Below the pieces are notes generated by a model that did no database searches, was not told the DNA's origin, and worked only from the letters and a program-made list of their open reading frames with translations. Positions 29,114 to 35,875 of a stretch of 35,875 nt of DNA are shown here, piece after piece (position 1 is the stretch's first letter; each line of letters starts with the position of its first letter). This DNA is from Candidatus Micrarchaeota archaeon (GTDB lineage: Archaea; Iainarchaeota; Iainarchaeia; Iainarchaeales; JAGVWC01), in contig JAHJAQ010000117.1 in assembly GCA_018813975.1 (NCBI GenBank), forward strand, positions 1-35,875, in the 5' to 3' direction. A program made the translations under genes and the position numbers.

Positions 29114-29734
29114 TTATTCGGTTCTGGATTCGTTTTCAGTAATTTCAATGGTGTGGTCGCAAAACTGGCTAATCACGCGAATCGTGTCCTGGTTTTCTTT
29201 GAGTCGGACCATTAGAAAAATGCCTAGTGCTTGCAGGCCACGAATTTTTCCAACCAACTGGTGCACGAATTTTTCCAGGGGTTCTGGTTTGTTGTACAAT
29301 AACAAGGTGGATAGAGAATCCAAGATTAAAAATTGTTGGTTTTTCGGGTTTTTCTCCAATGCTTGTTCTATTTGCATGGTTAATTCTAACAAGTTTTTTG
29401 GACTTTCCAAATAATGTACATTCTCGCCAGAAAGCTTTTCAGTTCCCGCTGTCTCACTCACTAAATCCACGAAAACGGTTTTTTGATCTTCCAGCACTTT
29501 TTGAGGGGAATCAAAAAGGTTTACCAGTGCTTTGTTAACCGAAACAAAAACGCCATTATCGGATCGCTTTTTCAAAAAATCGAGTAATCCGGTTTGAATG
29601 GCAGAATAATGGTCACTTTCAATAACCACTAGTACTACATTAGGTTTTTTGATTTCACTTAAAGCGCTTTCTAATTTTACTTCTACTCTTTTTTCCGGGT
29701 CCAATAATGATTCTAATGATTCTTTTTTGTCCAC
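29114..29734 (-). CDS. Degenerate KaiC/RecA-fold protein lacking a P-loop (pseudo-ATPase partner of the upstream KaiC-like gene)
   Basis: By-eye alignment with the neighbouring ATPase: NVVLVVIESDHYS vs NLLVVTGDPGSGKT (Walker A lost); GVFVSVNKA vs GVYISLEES (catalytic EE lost); FLILDSLSTLLLY vs RLVIDPGVVFRLF (Walker B strand kept). Confidence 0.4.
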   Translation of the reverse strand: MDKKESLESLLDPEKRVEVKLESALSEIKKPNVVLVVIESDHYSAIQTGLLDFLKKRSDNGVFVSVNKALVNLFDSPQKVLEDQKTVFVDLVSETAGTEKLSGENVHYLESPKNLLELTMQIEQALEKNPKNQQFLILDSLSTLLLYNKPEPLEKFVHQLVGKIRGLQALGIFLMVRLKENQDTIRVISQFCDHTIEITENESRTE

Positions 29735-29746
29735 TATTGTTCCCCC

Positions 29747-30496
29747 TTATAGTTCTTCGAATAATTCTTGTTTGGATAATACTCGAAGCCCATTCGCGCC
29801 AATTTCAATGGGGTGTAATTTTTCACTGATTTTGGTTCCGCGCATTTTGAGTACGCCAATACTTCGAATAAAACGATTTTCGAGTTTAGTATGATATAAT
29901 AGTATTACTCCATCTGCCACAAACTCTTCCAATCCAAACAAAGAACTGATTTTATCCAGGCTGAGCTCATTGGTGATGATTGTGGTTACATTAATGCGCT
30001 TGAGCATTTTTCCCAGTATTAAAATGGTTTTTCGTGCTTCTAACTCTCGTTCAAAAAACAACCTAAAAACCACGCCAGGATCTATTACCAGTCTTTTGGC
30101 TTTAATGCGTTCTACTGCTTCTTCTATCGTGTTTTTGAGTTTGTCAAAATCATAGAGCGAAACAGTTTCAATCAATAGTTTTCTTTGTTGAATTAGAGTG
30201 GAAAAATCATATCCATAATAAGCCGCTTCTTTAATGATTTCCGGTTCGCTTTCTTCTAAGGAAATATATACGCCTGGTTCTTCATAGTCATTAGCCCCTC
30301 CATACAAGAATCGATAGCAAAAATTGGTTTTTCCGCTACCCGGATCGCCTGTTACCACCAATAAGTTTCCTTCCGGAACCCCTCCTCCAACAAGCTCGTC
30401 AAATCCCGGAACGCCCGAGCGAATGCGCTTGGGATGCAAGTGAATGGTGTTGGTACTGGTTTTAGAAGCGGTTTTAGCAGTGGTTTTTTGGGCCAT
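29747..30496 (-). CDS. Single-domain KaiC-like (RecA-superfamily, ArlH/FlaH-like) ATPase
   Basis: GVPGFDELVGGGVPEGNLLVVTGDPGSGKTNF (Walker A), YISLEES (catalytic Glu pair), RLVIDP (Walker B), VLKMRGT. A TATA-like TTTAAATA at 30521..30528 lies 25-32 nt upstream of the ATG. Confidence 0.75.
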   Translation of the reverse strand: MAQKTTAKTASKTSTNTIHLHPKRIRSGVPGFDELVGGGVPEGNLLVVTGDPGSGKTNFCYRFLYGGANDYEEPGVYISLEESEPEIIKEAAYYGYDFSTLIQQRKLLIETVSLYDFDKLKNTIEEAVERIKAKRLVIDPGVVFRLFFERELEARKTILILGKMLKRINVTTIITNELSLDKISSLFGLEEFVADGVILLYHTKLENRFIRSIGVLKMRGTKISEKLHPIEIGANGLRVLSKQELFEEL

Positions 30497-30596
30497 GATA
30501 TTTTCTATTATTAATCATTGTTTAAATAGATTCGCTCAATACTGCCTGTTTTTTTGCTAAAATCGAGTTTTTAGTTCAATTCTCGTTCCCGATACC

Positions 30597-30604
30597 TTTA
30601 AATA
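30597..30604 (+). promoter_or_regulatory. TATA-box-like element (TTTAAATA) of the pilin gene
   Basis: It lies 68 nt upstream of the TTG start, predicting a ~40-45 nt leader that contains the 30637..30652 palindrome and the GGAGG. Confidence 0.35.
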
Positions 30605-30636
30605 TCAAAAATACTGTATTTCGTTAGCTTTTAACT

Positions 30637-30652
30637 GTTAAAACGTTTTAAC
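30637..30652. promoter_or_regulatory. Perfect 16-bp palindrome GTTAAAACGTTTTAAC in the pilin leader (operator or RNA hairpin candidate)
   Basis: Verified by hand to be self-complementary. A third TTTTAAC copy lies at 30629..30635. It ends 6 nt before the SD. Confidence 0.35.
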
Positions 30653-30671
30653 TAAAAAGGAGGAATGAAAA

Positions 30672-31112
30672 TTGAGATTCAATCAAAAAGGACAATCCGC
30701 CCTTGAATACCTAATGACGTATGGATGGGCACTTGTTGTGATTGTCGTAGTCGTAGCAGCCCTAGTCTTACTAGTCGGAAACCCAGCAGAAGCAGGCGAC
30801 ACTTGCTCCGGACCCGGTGCAGGCCTTAATATCACCAATCAAGAACTCGGTACAAGTGGTTGGGACTTGGTTATAAGCAACATTTCGGGCCGATCCATAA
30901 CTGCAGTTACGCCAACTGGTGTTAGCTCACCCACCCCAACCGTTGAAGGAACATACACGCCTTTTACTATGACCCCTGGTGAAGAAGTCACGCTAACAAC
31001 CGCAGCAGGAACTTTTGTTGCTGATACCCACTATCGAACAGAATTTAGTGTAGACTATCACGACGGAGACTTTACTAGAACCGTTACATTCTCTTGCAAC
31101 GGAACAGCATAA
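30672..31112 (+). CDS. Archaeal type IV pilin (class III signal peptide, Gln at +1, DUF361/Epd-like)
   Basis: MRFNQKG|QSALEYLMTYGWALVVIVVVVAALVLLV has a charged leader, a KG|Q prepilin-peptidase site and a hydrophobic helix. The mature domain is Thr/Gly-rich, with 2 Cys and N-x-S/T sequons (NIT, NIS, NGT). TTG start 8 nt after GGAGG (30659..30663). Confidence 0.8.
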   Translation: MRFNQKGQSALEYLMTYGWALVVIVVVVAALVLLVGNPAEAGDTCSGPGAGLNITNQELGTSGWDLVISNISGRSITAVTPTGVSSPTPTVEGTYTPFTMTPGEEVTLTTAAGTFVADTHYRTEFSVDYHDGDFTRTVTFSCNGTA

Positions 31113-31239: not shown

Positions 31240-32241
31240 TTACAACAGGGTTCCGAATACCTCTGTTAGCACCAATCGGATTACATAAAACAAGAGCAAG
31301 CTAATCACGAGAATAATAGGAAAAAACTTTATTCCGGCTTTTTCTTTTCCACTATTGATTACGCCAATGGTCATGGCAGCGAATACCGCTGTAAAAAACA
31401 TGGCCACTATCGAAAAAAACACGACAAAATCCGGCGTAATTAATATTTCTCTTTCTCCACTCGGAATAAAACTGGTTATTTGCGATACTCTTCCTCCTGC
31501 TTGTTGGATCATTTCCGGGTCAATAGTGGGCAGGTCTTGTAATTGGGTCGTAAGAATTTGCGTGATAAAGCTCGAAACACCAAACAATACCGGAGCACCA
31601 AACGCCGCTGAAACCAAAATCAATAGAATGTACAAGCTCATTTCTGCTTTGCCTTCATCTTGAATGGCGCGTTGTTCGCGCAAATCATCACTTAGTTGGG
31701 TTAGCAAATCCGCGATTTGGCCTCCGCTTTGAATTCCTTTTGCAATCAGCCATAACGTTCTTTCGAATACCACGGATTTTACGCGCGAACTCATGTTAAT
31801 CAGGGCGCGTTCCATGCCTTCTCCTGCTAAAATTTCTCGGCTGGCATGCTTGAGTTCTTTTTCCAAGGGACCAAATTCTGGTCTGGCTGAAACAAATAAT
31901 GCGCGTTCCGTGGTTAAACCGCTTTTAATATTAGAGGCAATTAATTGCAAGGCGTCTGGTAGCATGATCTCTACTTTTTGGCCTTTGGCTTCTGCCGCCA
32001 TGTTGAGCCACATGTAAATGCCACCCACAAATAATACAAAGGTTCCAAAAAAGCCGAACAAAAAGTGCAAGTCAAATAACAACCAAAGGTTTACCGCTAT
32101 TCCAATGCTAATTGCAAAACCAAAGGCGAGTAAAAATCCAAGAAACTTTTTTTCGTCGATAGTAATGCCTAGATAATTGAGGGATTTGGTTATTTTGTCT
32201 CCAAATCCTTTGGGTACAATTGCGGCAATGCGTTGGTACAT
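31240..32241 (-). CDS. Type II secretion system F-domain platform protein (TadC/FlaJ-like)
   Basis: T2SS-F pattern LPDALQLIASNIKSGLTTERAL ... IAKGIQSGGQIADLL, flanked by TM helices. Confidence 0.7.
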   Translation of the reverse strand: MYQRIAAIVPKGFGDKITKSLNYLGITIDEKKFLGFLLAFGFAISIGIAVNLWLLFDLHFLFGFFGTFVLFVGGIYMWLNMAAEAKGQKVEIMLPDALQLIASNIKSGLTTERALFVSARPEFGPLEKELKHASREILAGEGMERALINMSSRVKSVVFERTLWLIAKGIQSGGQIADLLTQLSDDLREQRAIQDEGKAEMSLYILLILVSAAFGAPVLFGVSSFITQILTTQLQDLPTIDPEMIQQAGGRVSQITSFIPSGEREILITPDFVVFFSIVAMFFTAVFAAMTIGVINSGKEKAGIKFFPIILVISLLLFYVIRLVLTEVFGTLL

Positions 32242-32245
32242 TTTT

Positions 32246-33142
32246 TCATCCTTCTGCTAGCAAGCTGGGTCGCTTGCTTTTTAATAATCCTACAAACATT
32301 ACTTGTGCTAGAATTAATCCTCCTAAAAAAGCCCATAATAGTTCTTGGGTAATGGGGATTTGGGGAAAGGTTGAAAGAATAATCATAAATGTTAATCCTA
32401 ATGCCGGAATGATTACGCCCAGCATCATATACATCAAAGATAATAAGCGCAAAGAAGCACTGTATTTTTTAATTTGAATGATTTGTTCTTTGGTCATGGC
32501 TCGAACCAATTCGCTTAAAACCTTGGTAATATCTGCACCAGCTTTCATGCCATTTATAACCTGCCATAAGGCTCTTCGATAAAACAAGGAAGGATTGCGC
32601 ATGACTGAATGCTGTAAGGCTTCTTCTTCTGGAATTCCAGTATTAATTTCATCCACGACTCTTCGAAACTCCGTGCTCAAATATCCATACGCGCCATCTG
32701 CAACTAGTGAAAGCGCGTCAAACAAAGTGACGCCAGAGCGAATTTGGACGGTAATGGTTCGCAAGCCAAATATGAGGTTTTTTTCCAAATTTCGAATCTT
32801 TTTTTTGATTCGAACTCTGGGATAAATCGATACTTGTACTAGGATTAGAATAGCAAAAATAAATCCAATTATGGGTCCGATTAGCAATCCAAGGGTTGGA
32901 TCTACCTCTAAAATGCCCTTGGTTTGGGCTATCAAACTAATAATACTGATTAGAATGGTCCATATTATAAAATGCGATAATGCTACAACAAAGCCCATGG
33001 AAACGTATTCATCTACATCCATGTCAATATCGGCTTGTTCTAGTTCTAGTTTTAAATAGGGTAATAGTTTGCCTATGAATGCGCCAATTCCCATGGTTTT
33101 TTGGCTCAAGCGTTGTAACACCTGAGCGGGCAAGGGGCTCAT
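32246..33142 (-). CDS. Type II secretion system F-domain platform protein (TadB/FlaJ-like)
   Basis: LRTITVQIRSGVTLFDAL ... INTGIPEEEAL ... VINGMKAGADITKVL with N- and C-terminal TM helices. It ends 4 nt before the next T2SS-F gene. Confidence 0.7.
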   Translation of the reverse strand: MSPLPAQVLQRLSQKTMGIGAFIGKLLPYLKLELEQADIDMDVDEYVSMGFVVALSHFIIWTILISIISLIAQTKGILEVDPTLGLLIGPIIGFIFAILILVQVSIYPRVRIKKKIRNLEKNLIFGLRTITVQIRSGVTLFDALSLVADGAYGYLSTEFRRVVDEINTGIPEEEALQHSVMRNPSLFYRRALWQVINGMKAGADITKVLSELVRAMTKEQIIQIKKYSASLRLLSLMYMMLGVIIPALGLTFMIILSTFPQIPITQELLWAFLGGLILAQVMFVGLLKSKRPSLLAEG

Positions 33143-33181: not shown

Positions 33182-34894
33182 TTATTCCTCCTTTGGCTTG
33201 ACTAAAGCGCTTTCTTTTAAAAAATCCGGGACAAAATCTTTTTGCATCCAATCCACTACTTTTTCTTCATCCATATAATATTCCGCCATAATTCTTCCCA
33301 CTAATTGTACATTGTGAATATTGTGTTTGACCATCCAATCCAATATTTTTTGTTTGGTATCCAGTTCTTTTTCCATGGTTTGTTGATTCATGCCCGTATG
33401 CAAGCTTAATTCATCCAAAAATCGAATGCTATCTGCGTTTTTTACAATTTCATCAGTAGCCGGTTTCCAACGATACAATACATTGGCGTGTAATACATCA
33501 TCCGCTCCTCTTTTTTCAGGTACTAATTCGGATAGTTGGAGTACTCTTCTAACTCCTAGTCGTCGGTTTCGAAACATAACTAGGTTTAAGTGAACCGCTT
33601 CGAGCATGGTGGCAGGTACATTAACAGGTGGATTAATAAGCCTTCGAATGGTTTCTTGAGAAGTATTCGCGTGAAACGTAGTATATACCGAGTGGCCCGT
33701 GTGCATTCCCTCAAACATTACTTCTGCTTCTTTTTGTCGCCTAACCTCTCCCACAATTAGTCTATCGGGGCGCATGCGCAAACTATTTACAAGCAAATCC
33801 AGCATTTCCACGCCTCCTTTTCCTTCTGCGCTTGGTTCTCTGGTTGTCATGGGCACCCAATGCAAAAATTCCGGGAGTTGAATTTCTCTGGTGTCCTCTA
33901 TGGATATAATTCTATGATTGGGTTGGACAAAGGGCAGCATTACATTTAGAATGCTGGTTTTGCCGCTAGCAGTTCCCCCTGAAATCAGAATGTTCATTTC
34001 GTATTGCATGGCCAGCCAGACTAAGGCCATGATTTCGCTGTTAACGGTTTTGTTTCGAATAAAATCGGTTACGGTCCAAGGATCTCTGCGAAACCTTCGA
34101 ATGGTAATGGTATTTCCCCTGCTTGAAATGGGAAACAAGGTAGCGTTTGCTCGGTCTCCGGTTATTAAGTGGGCATCTAATAAGGGATTGAGGGTAGTGA
34201 TTTGTTTTCCCACTCTTCTTGCAATAATGCTTGCAAAGTTTTGAATTTCTTCTTCTGGTTGAATAAAAATATTGGTTTTTAACCATCCAAACTTTTTGTT
34301 GTACACCCAAATTGCTTCGCGCGCTGAATTCACTACTATTTCTTCTAGGTTTCCATCGGCTAATAAGAATTCTATTTTGCCCAAGCCCAGCATTTCGTGT
34401 AACAAAATAGTAATGAGAATTTTTTTGGTGTCGTTATCTACGTGGGGTAATTCCTGTTCGAGGATTTTACTGGCTCTTCCTTCAAATTTTTCTTTGAGGG
34501 CGCGAATAAATTTGGGGTCTAGCATTTTTTCGGTTCGAATTGTGGCATCACTAATAATCGTGTTTTTGAGATTGTTCAATAAGGCGCGCGTTCCAGGACC
34601 GTATTCGGGGAAATTCAAAAAATATTCTAGTACAAAATCGCCCGGGCGTTGAATAATATCAACCTCTATATCCACACCATCTACCACATTTTTGTAGGAT
34701 TCAATTACAATTTCTGGTTTGGTGAGAACAGTTCGAATAAGACCTTTTTCTTCTCTTCTGCCTGCGCTTAATAATTGTTGCGCGGTTTTAGCATCTACCC
34801 CGAGCTCTTTTAGGTTTTTGAGAATGCTTTCATCACTAGCACCTTTTTGAATCATCGCGCGAATGATTGGAATCGTGTTTCCTTGGTCGGTCAT
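33182..34894 (-). CDS. Type II/IV secretion-family assembly ATPase (TadA/CpaF / ArlI-PilB-like)
   Basis: Walker A ISGGTASGKTS; Asp box IISIEDTREI; Walker B RMRPDRLIVGEVR; His box TGHSVYTTFHA. The start is taken at ATG 34894 (MTDQGN...), which forms an ATGA overlap with the upstream gene stop. The tracked start at 34906 is the alternative. Confidence 0.85.
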   Translation of the reverse strand: MTDQGNTIPIIRAMIQKGASDESILKNLKELGVDAKTAQQLLSAGRREEKGLIRTVLTKPEIVIESYKNVVDGVDIEVDIIQRPGDFVLEYFLNFPEYGPGTRALLNNLKNTIISDATIRTEKMLDPKFIRALKEKFEGRASKILEQELPHVDNDTKKILITILLHEMLGLGKIEFLLADGNLEEIVVNSAREAIWVYNKKFGWLKTNIFIQPEEEIQNFASIIARRVGKQITTLNPLLDAHLITGDRANATLFPISSRGNTITIRRFRRDPWTVTDFIRNKTVNSEIMALVWLAMQYEMNILISGGTASGKTSILNVMLPFVQPNHRIISIEDTREIQLPEFLHWVPMTTREPSAEGKGGVEMLDLLVNSLRMRPDRLIVGEVRRQKEAEVMFEGMHTGHSVYTTFHANTSQETIRRLINPPVNVPATMLEAVHLNLVMFRNRRLGVRRVLQLSELVPEKRGADDVLHANVLYRWKPATDEIVKNADSIRFLDELSLHTGMNQQTMEKELDTKQKILDWMVKHNIHNVQLVGRIMAEYYMDEEKVVDWMQKDFVPDFLKESALVKPKEE

Positions 34895-35875
34895 TTCTTT
34901 CCCCATTTCTTTTTTCTAGTTCTAGCGTACTCCAAATCTACAATGTGACTGGGCCCAAAAGCCGAGTATTCTTGAATAAGCAAGTTGCTTTCTTCTAAAA
35001 TATCCACAACTTCTTTTACGCCTCTTTTATCCATTTTTAGTTCTTTGGCCAGTTCATCCAGTTTAATGCTTCCTCTTTCTCGAATAATCTCTAATATCTT
35101 GTCGAAATCGGTAATTAATTCTTTCTTTTCCAGTTCTTTTTCAATTCCCACTGGTTTTTTGCTTTTTTTCATGGGGGAAAACGGAATTTCAAATTTTTCC
35201 GGTGTTATTCGAATAGTTCCACTCGAGGTAGCCGGCTGGATTAAACCCACTAGCTTGGTAAACCCTTCTAACACGCGATTGGCGTCAATCGCACGAATGT
35301 TTTGTTCTACCTCGCTTCTAGACAACATATTTTTTTGCAATAACTCTTCAATCATAGATTGTAATTGTTTTATTTGTTGCGGATCTACTTTTCCAGCCGA
35401 TTTGTGATCAATCAATTTTTTGAGTTCTTCAATATCTTCTTTTCGAATGTGTACGGGATCGCTTGGAACCGAAATCCGTTTCACTACTTTTGTTTCTCGA
35501 ATTGGATGGGAAACGGGTCTTTGTTCTTTTTCATTTTTTGGTTTCATTCCGACTACTTCTTTTTCCATTTCTTGGAGTTGTATTTTTTCCACTTTTCTTG
35601 CCAATTGTCGTTCTTTTTTGAGTTGTGCCCTAATTTTATTTTCTTTTTTGGTTGGGGGTGATATGGGCGTTTCTTTCGGTTCTTCTATTTCCGGTTCTGT
35701 TTCTCTTGAAGGCAATTCTATTACTTGGCGTCTTTTAATTTCTTCTAATATTTCGCGCTGAATGATTTCTCGCTTGGACAAAACGGTTTTTGGTTTTGGA
35801 ATTCTTATTTTTTGGACTGGTCTTTGATCGGAAAAAATTGGTTTGTATTTGGTGGTAGTAATAATTTTTTGAACG
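34891..35875 (-). CDS. Charged (K/E-rich) protein with C-terminal winged-helix domain; 5' end not defined within the window
   Basis: C-terminus DFDKILEIIRERGSIKLDELAKELKMDKRGVKEVVDILEESNLLIQEY looks like a wHTH. The tracked start (35781) is a TTG. I translated upstream and the frame stays open to the window edge (...VQKIITTTKYKPIFSDQRPVQKIRIPKPKTV-LSKRE), so the gene may begin outside the window. Confidence 0.45.
   Translation of the reverse strand, partial: VQKIITTTKYKPIFSDQRPVQKIRIPKPKTVLSKREIIQREILEEIKRRQVIELPSRETEPEIEEPKETPISPPTKKENKIRAQLKKERQLARKVEKIQLQEMEKEVVGMKPKNEKEQRPVSHPIRETKVVKRISVPSDPVHIRKEDIEELKKLIDHKSAGKVDPQQIKQLQSMIEELLQKNMLSRSEVEQNIRAIDANRVLEGFTKLVGLIQPATSSGTIRITPEKFEIPFSPMKKSKKPVGIEKELEKKELITDFDKILEIIRERGSIKLDELAKELKMDKRGVKEVVDILEESNLLIQEYSAFGPSHIVDLEYARTRKKKWGKK

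Follow-up and report, generated by a model that had tools for sequence, protein, structure and literature searches.

What would a KaiC-type ATPase do together with a partner of the same fold that has lost its P-loop, when the two are encoded side by side next to a type IV pilus cluster? The question is raised by a 35,875-nucleotide (nt) stretch of DNA from Candidatus Micrarchaeota archaeon (assembly GCA_018813975.1, contig JAHJAQ010000117.1), called the window below, in which two minus-strand genes, designated A and B, lie across a divergent promoter region from a pilin gene and its assembly genes. The answer we favour, with a probability of roughly 0.62, is that the two genes encode a cytoplasmic signalling module, an accessory of one type IV pilus locus that would couple a cellular signal to pilus production. 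The pair is arranged as follows (aa, amino acids).

29114..29734, minus strand: gene B, predicted inactivated KaiC-fold protein (iKaiC, DUF7504 type), 206 aa; PF24336, AlphaFold2 model and Foldseek
29735..29746, minus strand: spacer GGGGGAACAATA, 12 nt, from the TAA of A to the GTG of B, with a Shine-Dalgarno-like GGGGGA; read from the sequence
29747..30496, minus strand: gene A, predicted single-domain KaiC-family ATPase, 249 aa; PF06745, intact motifs

Gene A and its P-loop-less partner

Gene A encodes a KaiC-type protein with all three catalytic motifs in place, as an earlier note on this DNA had read from the open reading frame (ORF). Walker A is GDPGSGKT (residues 50-57), the EE pair lies within SLEESE (E81 and E82), and Walker B reads RLVIDP (D139); G50, G53, G55, K56, E81 and D139 showed no variation across nine orthologues and paralogues. 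The Pfam KaiC family (PF06745) recognized A with 187.3 bits, far above its cut-off of 26.6, which places A in the KaiC family. In a search of the Protein Data Bank (PDB) the nearest structures were the KaiC CI domain and two single-domain proteins of Pyrococcus, PH0186 and PH0284, with KaiC matches down to an E value of 1e-55, whereas FlaH appeared at merely 4e-7. The earlier note had framed A by ArlH (FlaH), the KaiC-like ATPase of archaella, and this framing did not survive: the NCBIfam ArlH model NF052589 gave 44.7 bits against a cut-off of 215. Because the ArlH score is so far under its cut-off, and because KaiC CI, PH0186 and PH0284 are the nearest structures, A is classified here, by homology, as a generic single-domain archaeal KaiC homologue that resembles the KaiC CI domain and not as ArlH. 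Nor does A have the features of the two-domain circadian KaiC, since it contains one domain and scored 163 bits with NF006799 against a cut-off of 408. Profile searches of the genome to which the window belongs (1.07 Mb in 144 contigs, 84% complete) yielded no KaiB match and no protein above the ArlH cut-off.

The gene 12 nt downstream encodes a protein in which, as the same note had stated and as can be read directly from the ORF, the catalytic motifs are replaced. The P-loop position reads VVLVVIESDHYS (VVIESDHYS, the IESDHYS of the note), VFVSVNKA stands opposite VYISLEES of A with NK in place of EE, and a Walker-B-like segment is kept (FLILDSLSTLLLYN; FLILDSLSTLL, DSLSTLLLYN). The start codon of B is GTG with GGGGGA ahead of it, a start supported by homologues that begin at the same point. 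Among Pfam families B scored best with DUF7504 (PF24336, 46.9 bits; cut-off 27), followed by DUF7090 (PF23365, 33.5 bits; cut-off 27) and KaiC (PF06745, 27.7 bits; cut-off 26.6); DUF835, with 19.1 bits, stayed under its cut-off of 33.1. Twenty homologues of B gave a similar picture, with profile matches to DUF7504 in 20/20, to KaiC in 19/20, to DUF835 in 12/20 (below the DUF835 cut-off) and to Elong_Iki1 in 2/20. The FlaH subfamily model matched B at an E value of 0.02 at best, and the ArlH model did not match it. An ArlH identity for either A or B was rejected on the NCBIfam scores and on the lack of any ArlH above cut-off in the genome.

Direct comparison of the two proteins by BLASTP was not significant (E = 5.6), so their homology has to be shown through profiles and structure. 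The strand-for-strand alignment that had been made by eye therefore holds at those levels and not pairwise. Alignment of the A-type family with the B family by hhalign gave an E value of 4.7e-5 and a probability of 68%, with PGVYISLEES paired with NGVFVSVNKA, and KRLVIDPG with QFLILDSL. PDB sequence searches with B and with the B-family profile returned marginal KaiC and FlaH matches only (E values of 0.085 to 0.4). An AlphaFold2 model of B, computed with 20 homologues, had a predicted local distance difference test score (pLDDT) of 87.9 and a predicted template modelling score (pTM) of 0.85. The top Foldseek match of this model was PH0284 (E = 4e-7, TM score 0.66-0.68); PH0321, many KaiC chains, FlaH (4yds) and RecA were also matched, KaiC, FlaH and RecA at E values of about 1e-5, and the matches further included Elp456 (4ejs) and a Rad51-paralogue complex (9q25). 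By this model B has the KaiC/RecA fold, as had been supposed, and not a different one. At the P-loop site the model shows a turn of three residues that connects strand 32-39 with helix 43-57. The chain of B is the shorter of the two and stops at the counterpart of the ADGVILLYH strand of A, so that the segment with the conserved LKMRG of A is missing. We also considered the invariant GKxR of B (K163 and R165) as a trans-acting Lys/Arg finger, a counterpart of LKMRG in A; the idea was rejected because hhalign and the model both put GKxR in the helix that follows Walker B, at the position of GKMLKR in A.

The replaced motifs are a property of the whole family. B-like proteins form 3392 clusters at 50% identity with an E value of 1e-3 or lower (479 with 1e-30 or lower), nearly all of them stand-alone proteins of 180-230 aa. 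For closer analysis we used a sample of 70 non-redundant loci encoding a B-like protein, which were fetched with 10 kb on either side and annotated with profiles from the window's proteins. One B-like protein was taken per locus in 69 loci, and none of these has the Walker A pattern G(x)4GK[ST]; the only Walker A in any B-like ORF was that in the GTPase half of a fusion in locus L090. The family has its own set of invariant residues (N67, D90, P112, D139, S140, T143, L144, Y147, N148, F156, H158, K163, R165, F191 and D193 of B), and K68 is nearly invariant. The absence of Walker A from the B-like domains examined, together with this different invariant set, indicates that the loss of the P-loop and of the EE pair in B is old and kept by selection, a family-wide feature rather than a single lesion.

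Domain fusions give some indication of the company that B-like domains keep. A KaiB-like domain and a V4R ligand-binding domain are joined to a B-like domain in P0075 (456 aa), a B-like domain to a WD40 propeller in P0134 (465 aa), and DUF835 to DUF7504 in P0108 (329 aa); judged by their domain composition, these proteins connect the B family with KaiC signalling and with roles in protein interaction. Among the longer family members examined, neither a live KaiC fused to B nor a KaiC-T2SSE fusion was found. Long ORFs that were candidates for such a KaiC-B fusion proved to be something else: that of L050 is a transposase read-through artefact, those of L005, L035 and L032 carry low-complexity N-terminal extensions, and the rest are fused to other domains.

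A separate type of fusion was seen in L083 (1839-2891, 350 aa) and L090 (10536-11759, 407 aa), where an N-terminal degenerate RecA/KaiC-like domain precedes a C-terminal small GTPase-like domain (GPxxxGK[ST] ... DxxG ... NKxD). Each of these two genes adjoins a stand-alone B-like gene, and pilin genes are among the neighbours in L083.

Pairing with A and linkage to pilus genes

The nearest named relatives of B come from Candidatus Iainarchaeum metagenome-assembled genomes (MAGs), which belong to the DPANN archaea. A Walker-A-positive KaiC gene was found within 2.5 kb of B in 43 of the 70 loci, and KaiC was adjacent to B in 19 of the 26 loci that have at least 6 kb on both sides. In a maximum-likelihood tree the window's B fell within a 19-sequence clade (support 98/97), every member of which has a KaiC gene directly upstream of B; the pair noticed in the window is thus a conserved one. 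The KaiC gene is intact and adjacent to B in 18 of the 19, and in L009 it is cut by the contig end. Pilus genes as well as KaiC are present in 11 members and KaiC only in seven, mostly on short contigs, with L009 as the remaining one. The spacing from KaiC to B within the clade is usually -16 to +25 nt, stop and start codons often overlapping. Gene arrangement therefore makes a strong case that A and B are tightly coupled, as a predicted operon.

In the window, A and B also share a reading frame, separated by TAA and four codons; when the TAA is taken as a residue, one open frame of 460 residues results. In three other loci the stop codon of A (TAG, TGA or TAA) is followed directly and in frame by the ATG of B (L051 9200-10555, L060 9239-10597 and L066 9257-10597). 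The arrangement resembles a two-domain KaiC, with a live CI and a dead CII-like domain, that has been split by a stop codon, and it could also have arisen by chance, the count being small.

Linkage of B-like genes to a pilus cluster recurred in relatives, where a survey had been called for, and did so in two gene orders. A gene for the assembly ATPase (T2SSE) or the platform protein (T2SSF) was found within 10 kb in 26/70 loci, and in 11/26 of those with at least 6 kb on both sides. Chance would give about 11%, given the density of T2SSE loci in this genome (about five per Mb), and the corresponding binomial p value of 5e-5 exaggerates the significance, as the loci are mutually related and not independent. 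The gene order appears more persuasive than these counts. Iainarchaeota loci have a winged-helix (wHTH) gene, T2SSE and two T2SSF genes in a row, an opposite-strand pilin gene, then KaiC (sometimes two) and then B. In Woese-/Nanoarchaeota, B runs divergently from two KaiC genes and converges on T2SSF-T2SSF-T2SSE-wHTH. B-like genes and pilus ATPases also occur together in L084, a contig of Hydrothermarchaeota, and in L079, a variant locus of Iainarchaeota.

The pilus side of the window comprises the following features.

30497..30671, no strand: divergent promoter region, 175 bp, between A and the pilin gene, with two copies of TTTAAATA, a palindrome and GGAGG
30672..31112, plus strand: pilin, 146 aa, with a class III signal peptide (MRFNQKG/QSALEYL, then a hydrophobic helix); from the translation, no Pfam match
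31240..32241, minus strand: platform gene 1, single T2SSF domain, TadC-like; PF00482 (60 and 63.5 bits for the two platform genes)
32246..33142, minus strand: platform gene 2, single T2SSF domain, TadC-like; PF00482 (bits as above)
33182..34906, minus strand: pilus assembly ATPase, T2SSE/VirB11/FlaI-like, 574 aa, not ArlI; PF00437, 114.8 bits; FlaI model NF058587, 283 bits against 550
34891..35781, minus strand: K/E-rich protein with a C-terminal MarR-type winged helix (wHTH); PF01047, 27.3 bits

A profile made from the window's pilin picked up genes beside the pilus clusters of relatives. The 3' end of the wHTH gene overlaps the ATPase gene, and a wHTH homologue stands upstream of T2SSE in 17 loci, heading the pilus cluster in Iainarchaeota and in Woese-/Nanoarchaeota alike. 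The cluster does not have the features of an arl operon: the ATPase falls short of the FlaI model (283 against 550 bits), the ArlJ model gave 24.6 bits (cut-off 400), two TadC-like genes make up the split platform and there is one short pilin; ArlF and ArlG were not specifically searched for.

The A-B pair is divergent from the pilin gene across a spacer of exactly 175 bp, as the earlier note had measured it, and both TATA-like boxes that it had placed there are present as copies of TTTAAATA (30521-30528 and 30597-30604); it is their identity as TATA boxes that is less certain. The octamer occurs six times in the window against 6.4 expected, and since it is not over-represented the two copies are plausible, unproven TATA boxes. 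The first copy lies 25-32 nt from the ATG of A, so the mRNA of A would be nearly leaderless. The pilin gene starts with TTG, with GGAGG ahead of it. Between the pilin TATA-like box and this Shine-Dalgarno site lies a perfect 16-bp palindrome, GTTAAAACGTTTTAAC (30637-30652), which occurs once in the 1.07-Mb genome and which was found again, exact and at the same place upstream of the pilin gene, in the relative L001 (7015-7030), whose proteins are only 55-80% identical. The palindrome is a candidate operator, perhaps for the wHTH protein, or alternatively a candidate 5'-untranslated-region hairpin.

Several further observations were made on these loci. In L001 (1-3069), the closest relative, the orthologue of the pilus ATPase is a 1749-aa product with two intein-type insertions (Intein_splicing, LAGLIDADG_3), and the orthologue in the window is free of inteins. 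Directly downstream of B, and convergent with it, L002 (8704-10011), L005 (7012-8301), L007 (2452-3771) and L009 (1144-2433) have a gene of about 430 aa without a Pfam family; a phosphoenolpyruvate synthase gene takes this position in the window and in L001. Eight DPANN-type KaiC/B/pilus loci (L038, L039, L040, L051, L053, L057, L060 and L061) are found in MAGs labelled Methanosarcinales, Anaerolineales, Chloroflexi/Chloroflexota or Falkowbacteria. The B proteins that they encode fall within the Woese-/Nanoarchaeota or Iainarchaeota clades, which suggests that these contigs are mis-binned rather than that the genes were transferred to bacteria.

How the pair may act

In the signalling module that we favour, A would be a working single-domain KaiC-type ATPase and B its dedicated, catalytically dead partner, an iKaiC of the DUF7504 type. 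A would oligomerize in the manner of KaiC, and the binding of B would be controlled by the nucleotide state of A, perhaps together with its autophosphorylation. B would then serve as the adaptor or output, the role played elsewhere by KaiB or other partners, and the target of this output would be the pilus ATPase, by analogy with ArlH, or else the wHTH protein together with the pilin promoter, by analogy with CirA/CsmR. A partner role of B in KaiC signalling fits with the genome having no KaiB match, with the fusions of B-like domains (KaiB-like plus V4R, WD40 and DUF835) and with the Elp456 and Rad51-paralogue structures among its neighbours.

A number of observations weigh against this reading. 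The B family, with its 3392 clusters, is far broader than the pilus linkage, and its Methanocellales/ANME-2, Altiarchaeota/Aenigmarchaeota and Asgard clades have zero pilus genes within 10 kb. The window's own genome encodes, on contig C11 (1944-5532), a KaiC of 310 aa, a double-domain KaiC of 507 aa, a P-loop-less B-like protein of 196 aa and a second B-like protein encoded in tandem with it, truncated at the contig end. Pilus genes are absent from this 5.5-kb contig. The genome also holds a second complete pilus cluster, on contig C90, that lacks KaiC. In one Iainarchaeota subclade, the pilin gene is separated from the A-B pair by coenzyme A biosynthesis genes, a PIN gene and two glycosyltransferase genes. 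We further modelled A and B as one fused chain with AlphaFold2, using the 460-residue read-through frame and an alignment partly paired via the three natural in-frame A-stop-B rows. Both halves folded well (mean pLDDT 81) with a pTM of 0.53 overall, and superposition on the CI-CII of two-domain KaiC gave a root-mean-square deviation of about 19 Å and a TM score of 0.43, a short linker and a monomer model being weak tools for this purpose. Function throughout the B-like family is deduced from gene neighbourhoods only, and we know of no experiment on any member. Since the pair also occurs in clades, and in the C11 cluster, without pilus genes, we regard the KaiC plus dead-partner pair as a predicted general module, one copy of which serves this pilus type specifically or at any rate keeps a stable association with it.

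As for how such a copy would reach the pilus, a transcriptional route seems possible. The pair would modify or sequester the wHTH protein, which would in turn bind the palindrome in the pilin promoter, in parallel with CirA/CsmR. Consistent with this route, the wHTH gene belongs to the operon of the ATPase (predicted co-transcription) and is retained by both DPANN lineages, the pair and the pilin gene are transcribed divergently, and GTTAAAACGTTTTAAC has stayed exact in L001 between TATA-like box and Shine-Dalgarno site despite the divergence of the proteins. A precedent is provided by CirA, which lowers arl transcription and may tune CsmR post-translationally (PMC10983859; PMC13286277). On the other hand, the route assumes both that the wHTH protein binds the palindrome and that it contacts A or B, and Woese-/Nanoarchaeota lack the divergent arrangement of the pair and a pilin gene.

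Control through the operon's wHTH protein appears at least as likely as the direct gating that the earlier note proposed, in which a mixed active/inactive KaiC-fold ring of A and B docks on the adjacent pilus ATPase and gates it as ArlH does with ArlI. The model for such gating is ArlH itself, a KaiC-like protein whose binding to ArlI, dependent on nucleotide and phosphorylation, is cited in PMC4858521 and in the reference list of PMC12448462. FlaH (4yds) and the Elp456 hetero-hexamer are among the structural neighbours of B, and two gene orders link the pair with the ATPase cluster. We nonetheless hold direct gating to be rather unlikely: A is distant from ArlH (44.7 bits; cut-off 215), B is truncated relative to A and lacks the segment that holds LKMRG in A, the fused chain gave no confident A-B arrangement (pTM 0.53), the longer members examined include neither an A-B nor a KaiC-T2SSE fusion, and the family is often found without pilus genes. 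Its most far-reaching form, in which A, B and, in many relatives, a second KaiC build a mixed RecA-fold ring with some live ATP sites, the ArlH-equivalent of a DPANN-wide adhesion pilus motor, is improbable.

Loose synteny is likewise a doubtful explanation, in which a general signalling pair serves, for example, surface glycosylation or a global state switch and stays near the pilus genes via inherited gene order: it accords with the subclade where the pair lies directly downstream of the two same-strand glycosyltransferase genes and 5-8 kb from the pilus genes, with the C11 cluster and with the many clades without pilus linkage, but the linkage survives rearrangement of order and strand in two DPANN lineages and is seen again in L084 and L079, which is hard to explain by inheritance alone.

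Relation to known KaiC systems

The earlier note took a module of this kind to be undescribed for archaeal adhesion pili, which proved too broad a claim. KaiC-family ATPases are strongly associated with non-archaellum pilus loci, regulation of archaeal pili has been predicted for proteins of this family, inactivated ones among them, and locus tables list two inactivated KaiC families beside FlaI-like ATPases in Archaeoglobus (Makarova, Koonin and Albers, 2016; PMC4858521). The term iKaiC has been used for inactivated KaiC-like domains, with details referred to Makarova et al. (2017) (Galperin et al., 2018; PMC5847659), and the catalogued groups are arCOG01171/01174/01175 and arCOG03793/DUF835 (PMC4858521; PMC5847659). 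The pilus cluster of the window, with two TadC-like genes, fits the 'euryarchaeal' layout, which has two tadC-like genes per locus (PMC4858521).

The window locus shares with those in the catalogue a live single-domain KaiC and a P-loop-less KaiC-fold protein beside a FlaI-like ATPase and TadC genes, in a non-archaellum setting, and in both cases function is predicted from gene neighbourhoods alone. It differs from them in that the best family of B is DUF7504 (PF24336) and not DUF835 or MEDS, and in its DPANN host (Iainarchaeota-like), a group hardly represented in the 2016 census. No description of the fixed A-B operon pairing, or of the wider pilus module with the wHTH gene, was found in the portions of the catalogue text available to us. 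The literature searched contained no mention of DUF7504 and only passing mentions of KaiC-like proteins, pili and DPANN in combination. What is specific here, as far as gene content can tell, is the DUF7504-type partner, the strict A-B pairing, the DPANN host and the wider conserved module with the wHTH gene.

Three better-known systems offer partial parallels. ArlH (FlaH) is likewise a single-domain protein of RecA/KaiC fold encoded beside a FlaI-type ATPase, and FlaH (4yds) is structurally near to B; the ArlH locus has ArlJ and archaellins, whereas the window has split TadC genes and a Gln(+1) pilin, and the B family is without Walker A. In Haloferax volcanii, CirA is a KaiC-like ATPase that is also encoded divergently beside filament genes and is a transcript-level regulator, possibly via a transcription factor. 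It acts on the archaellum and cell shape rather than on an adhesion pilus, and its likeness to A is one of description; in the texts consulted (PMC10983859; PMC13286277) no dead partner is described for CirA. Elp4/5/6 and the Rad51 paralogues are RecA-fold subunits that have lost catalysis, as B has, but those complexes are eukaryotic with unrelated functions, and a ring shared by A and B would be hypothetical.

Control of surface filaments by KaiC and iKaiC is an idea built on gene neighbourhoods only. To our knowledge, none of the KaiC-like proteins at non-archaellum archaeal pilus loci has been characterized. The locus described here leaves the existing picture unchanged and offers a clean minimal case of it: one live KaiC, one dead partner, no KaiB match, and one pilus cluster with its own wHTH gene and a conserved promoter palindrome. 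It could thus be a reasonable template for biochemical reconstitution, and interest in it would rise only if a defined mixed ring that acts on the pilus motor were demonstrated. Such a ring, if real, would be a prokaryotic counterpart of Elp456 or of the Rad51 paralogues, and the A-stop-B frame would be a split two-domain KaiC with a live CI and a dead CII-like half. The host lineage consists of DPANN archaea with small genomes, for which pili may matter in attachment, and the ring would then be a switch for the assembly of pili that small-genome archaea may use on hosts or surfaces.

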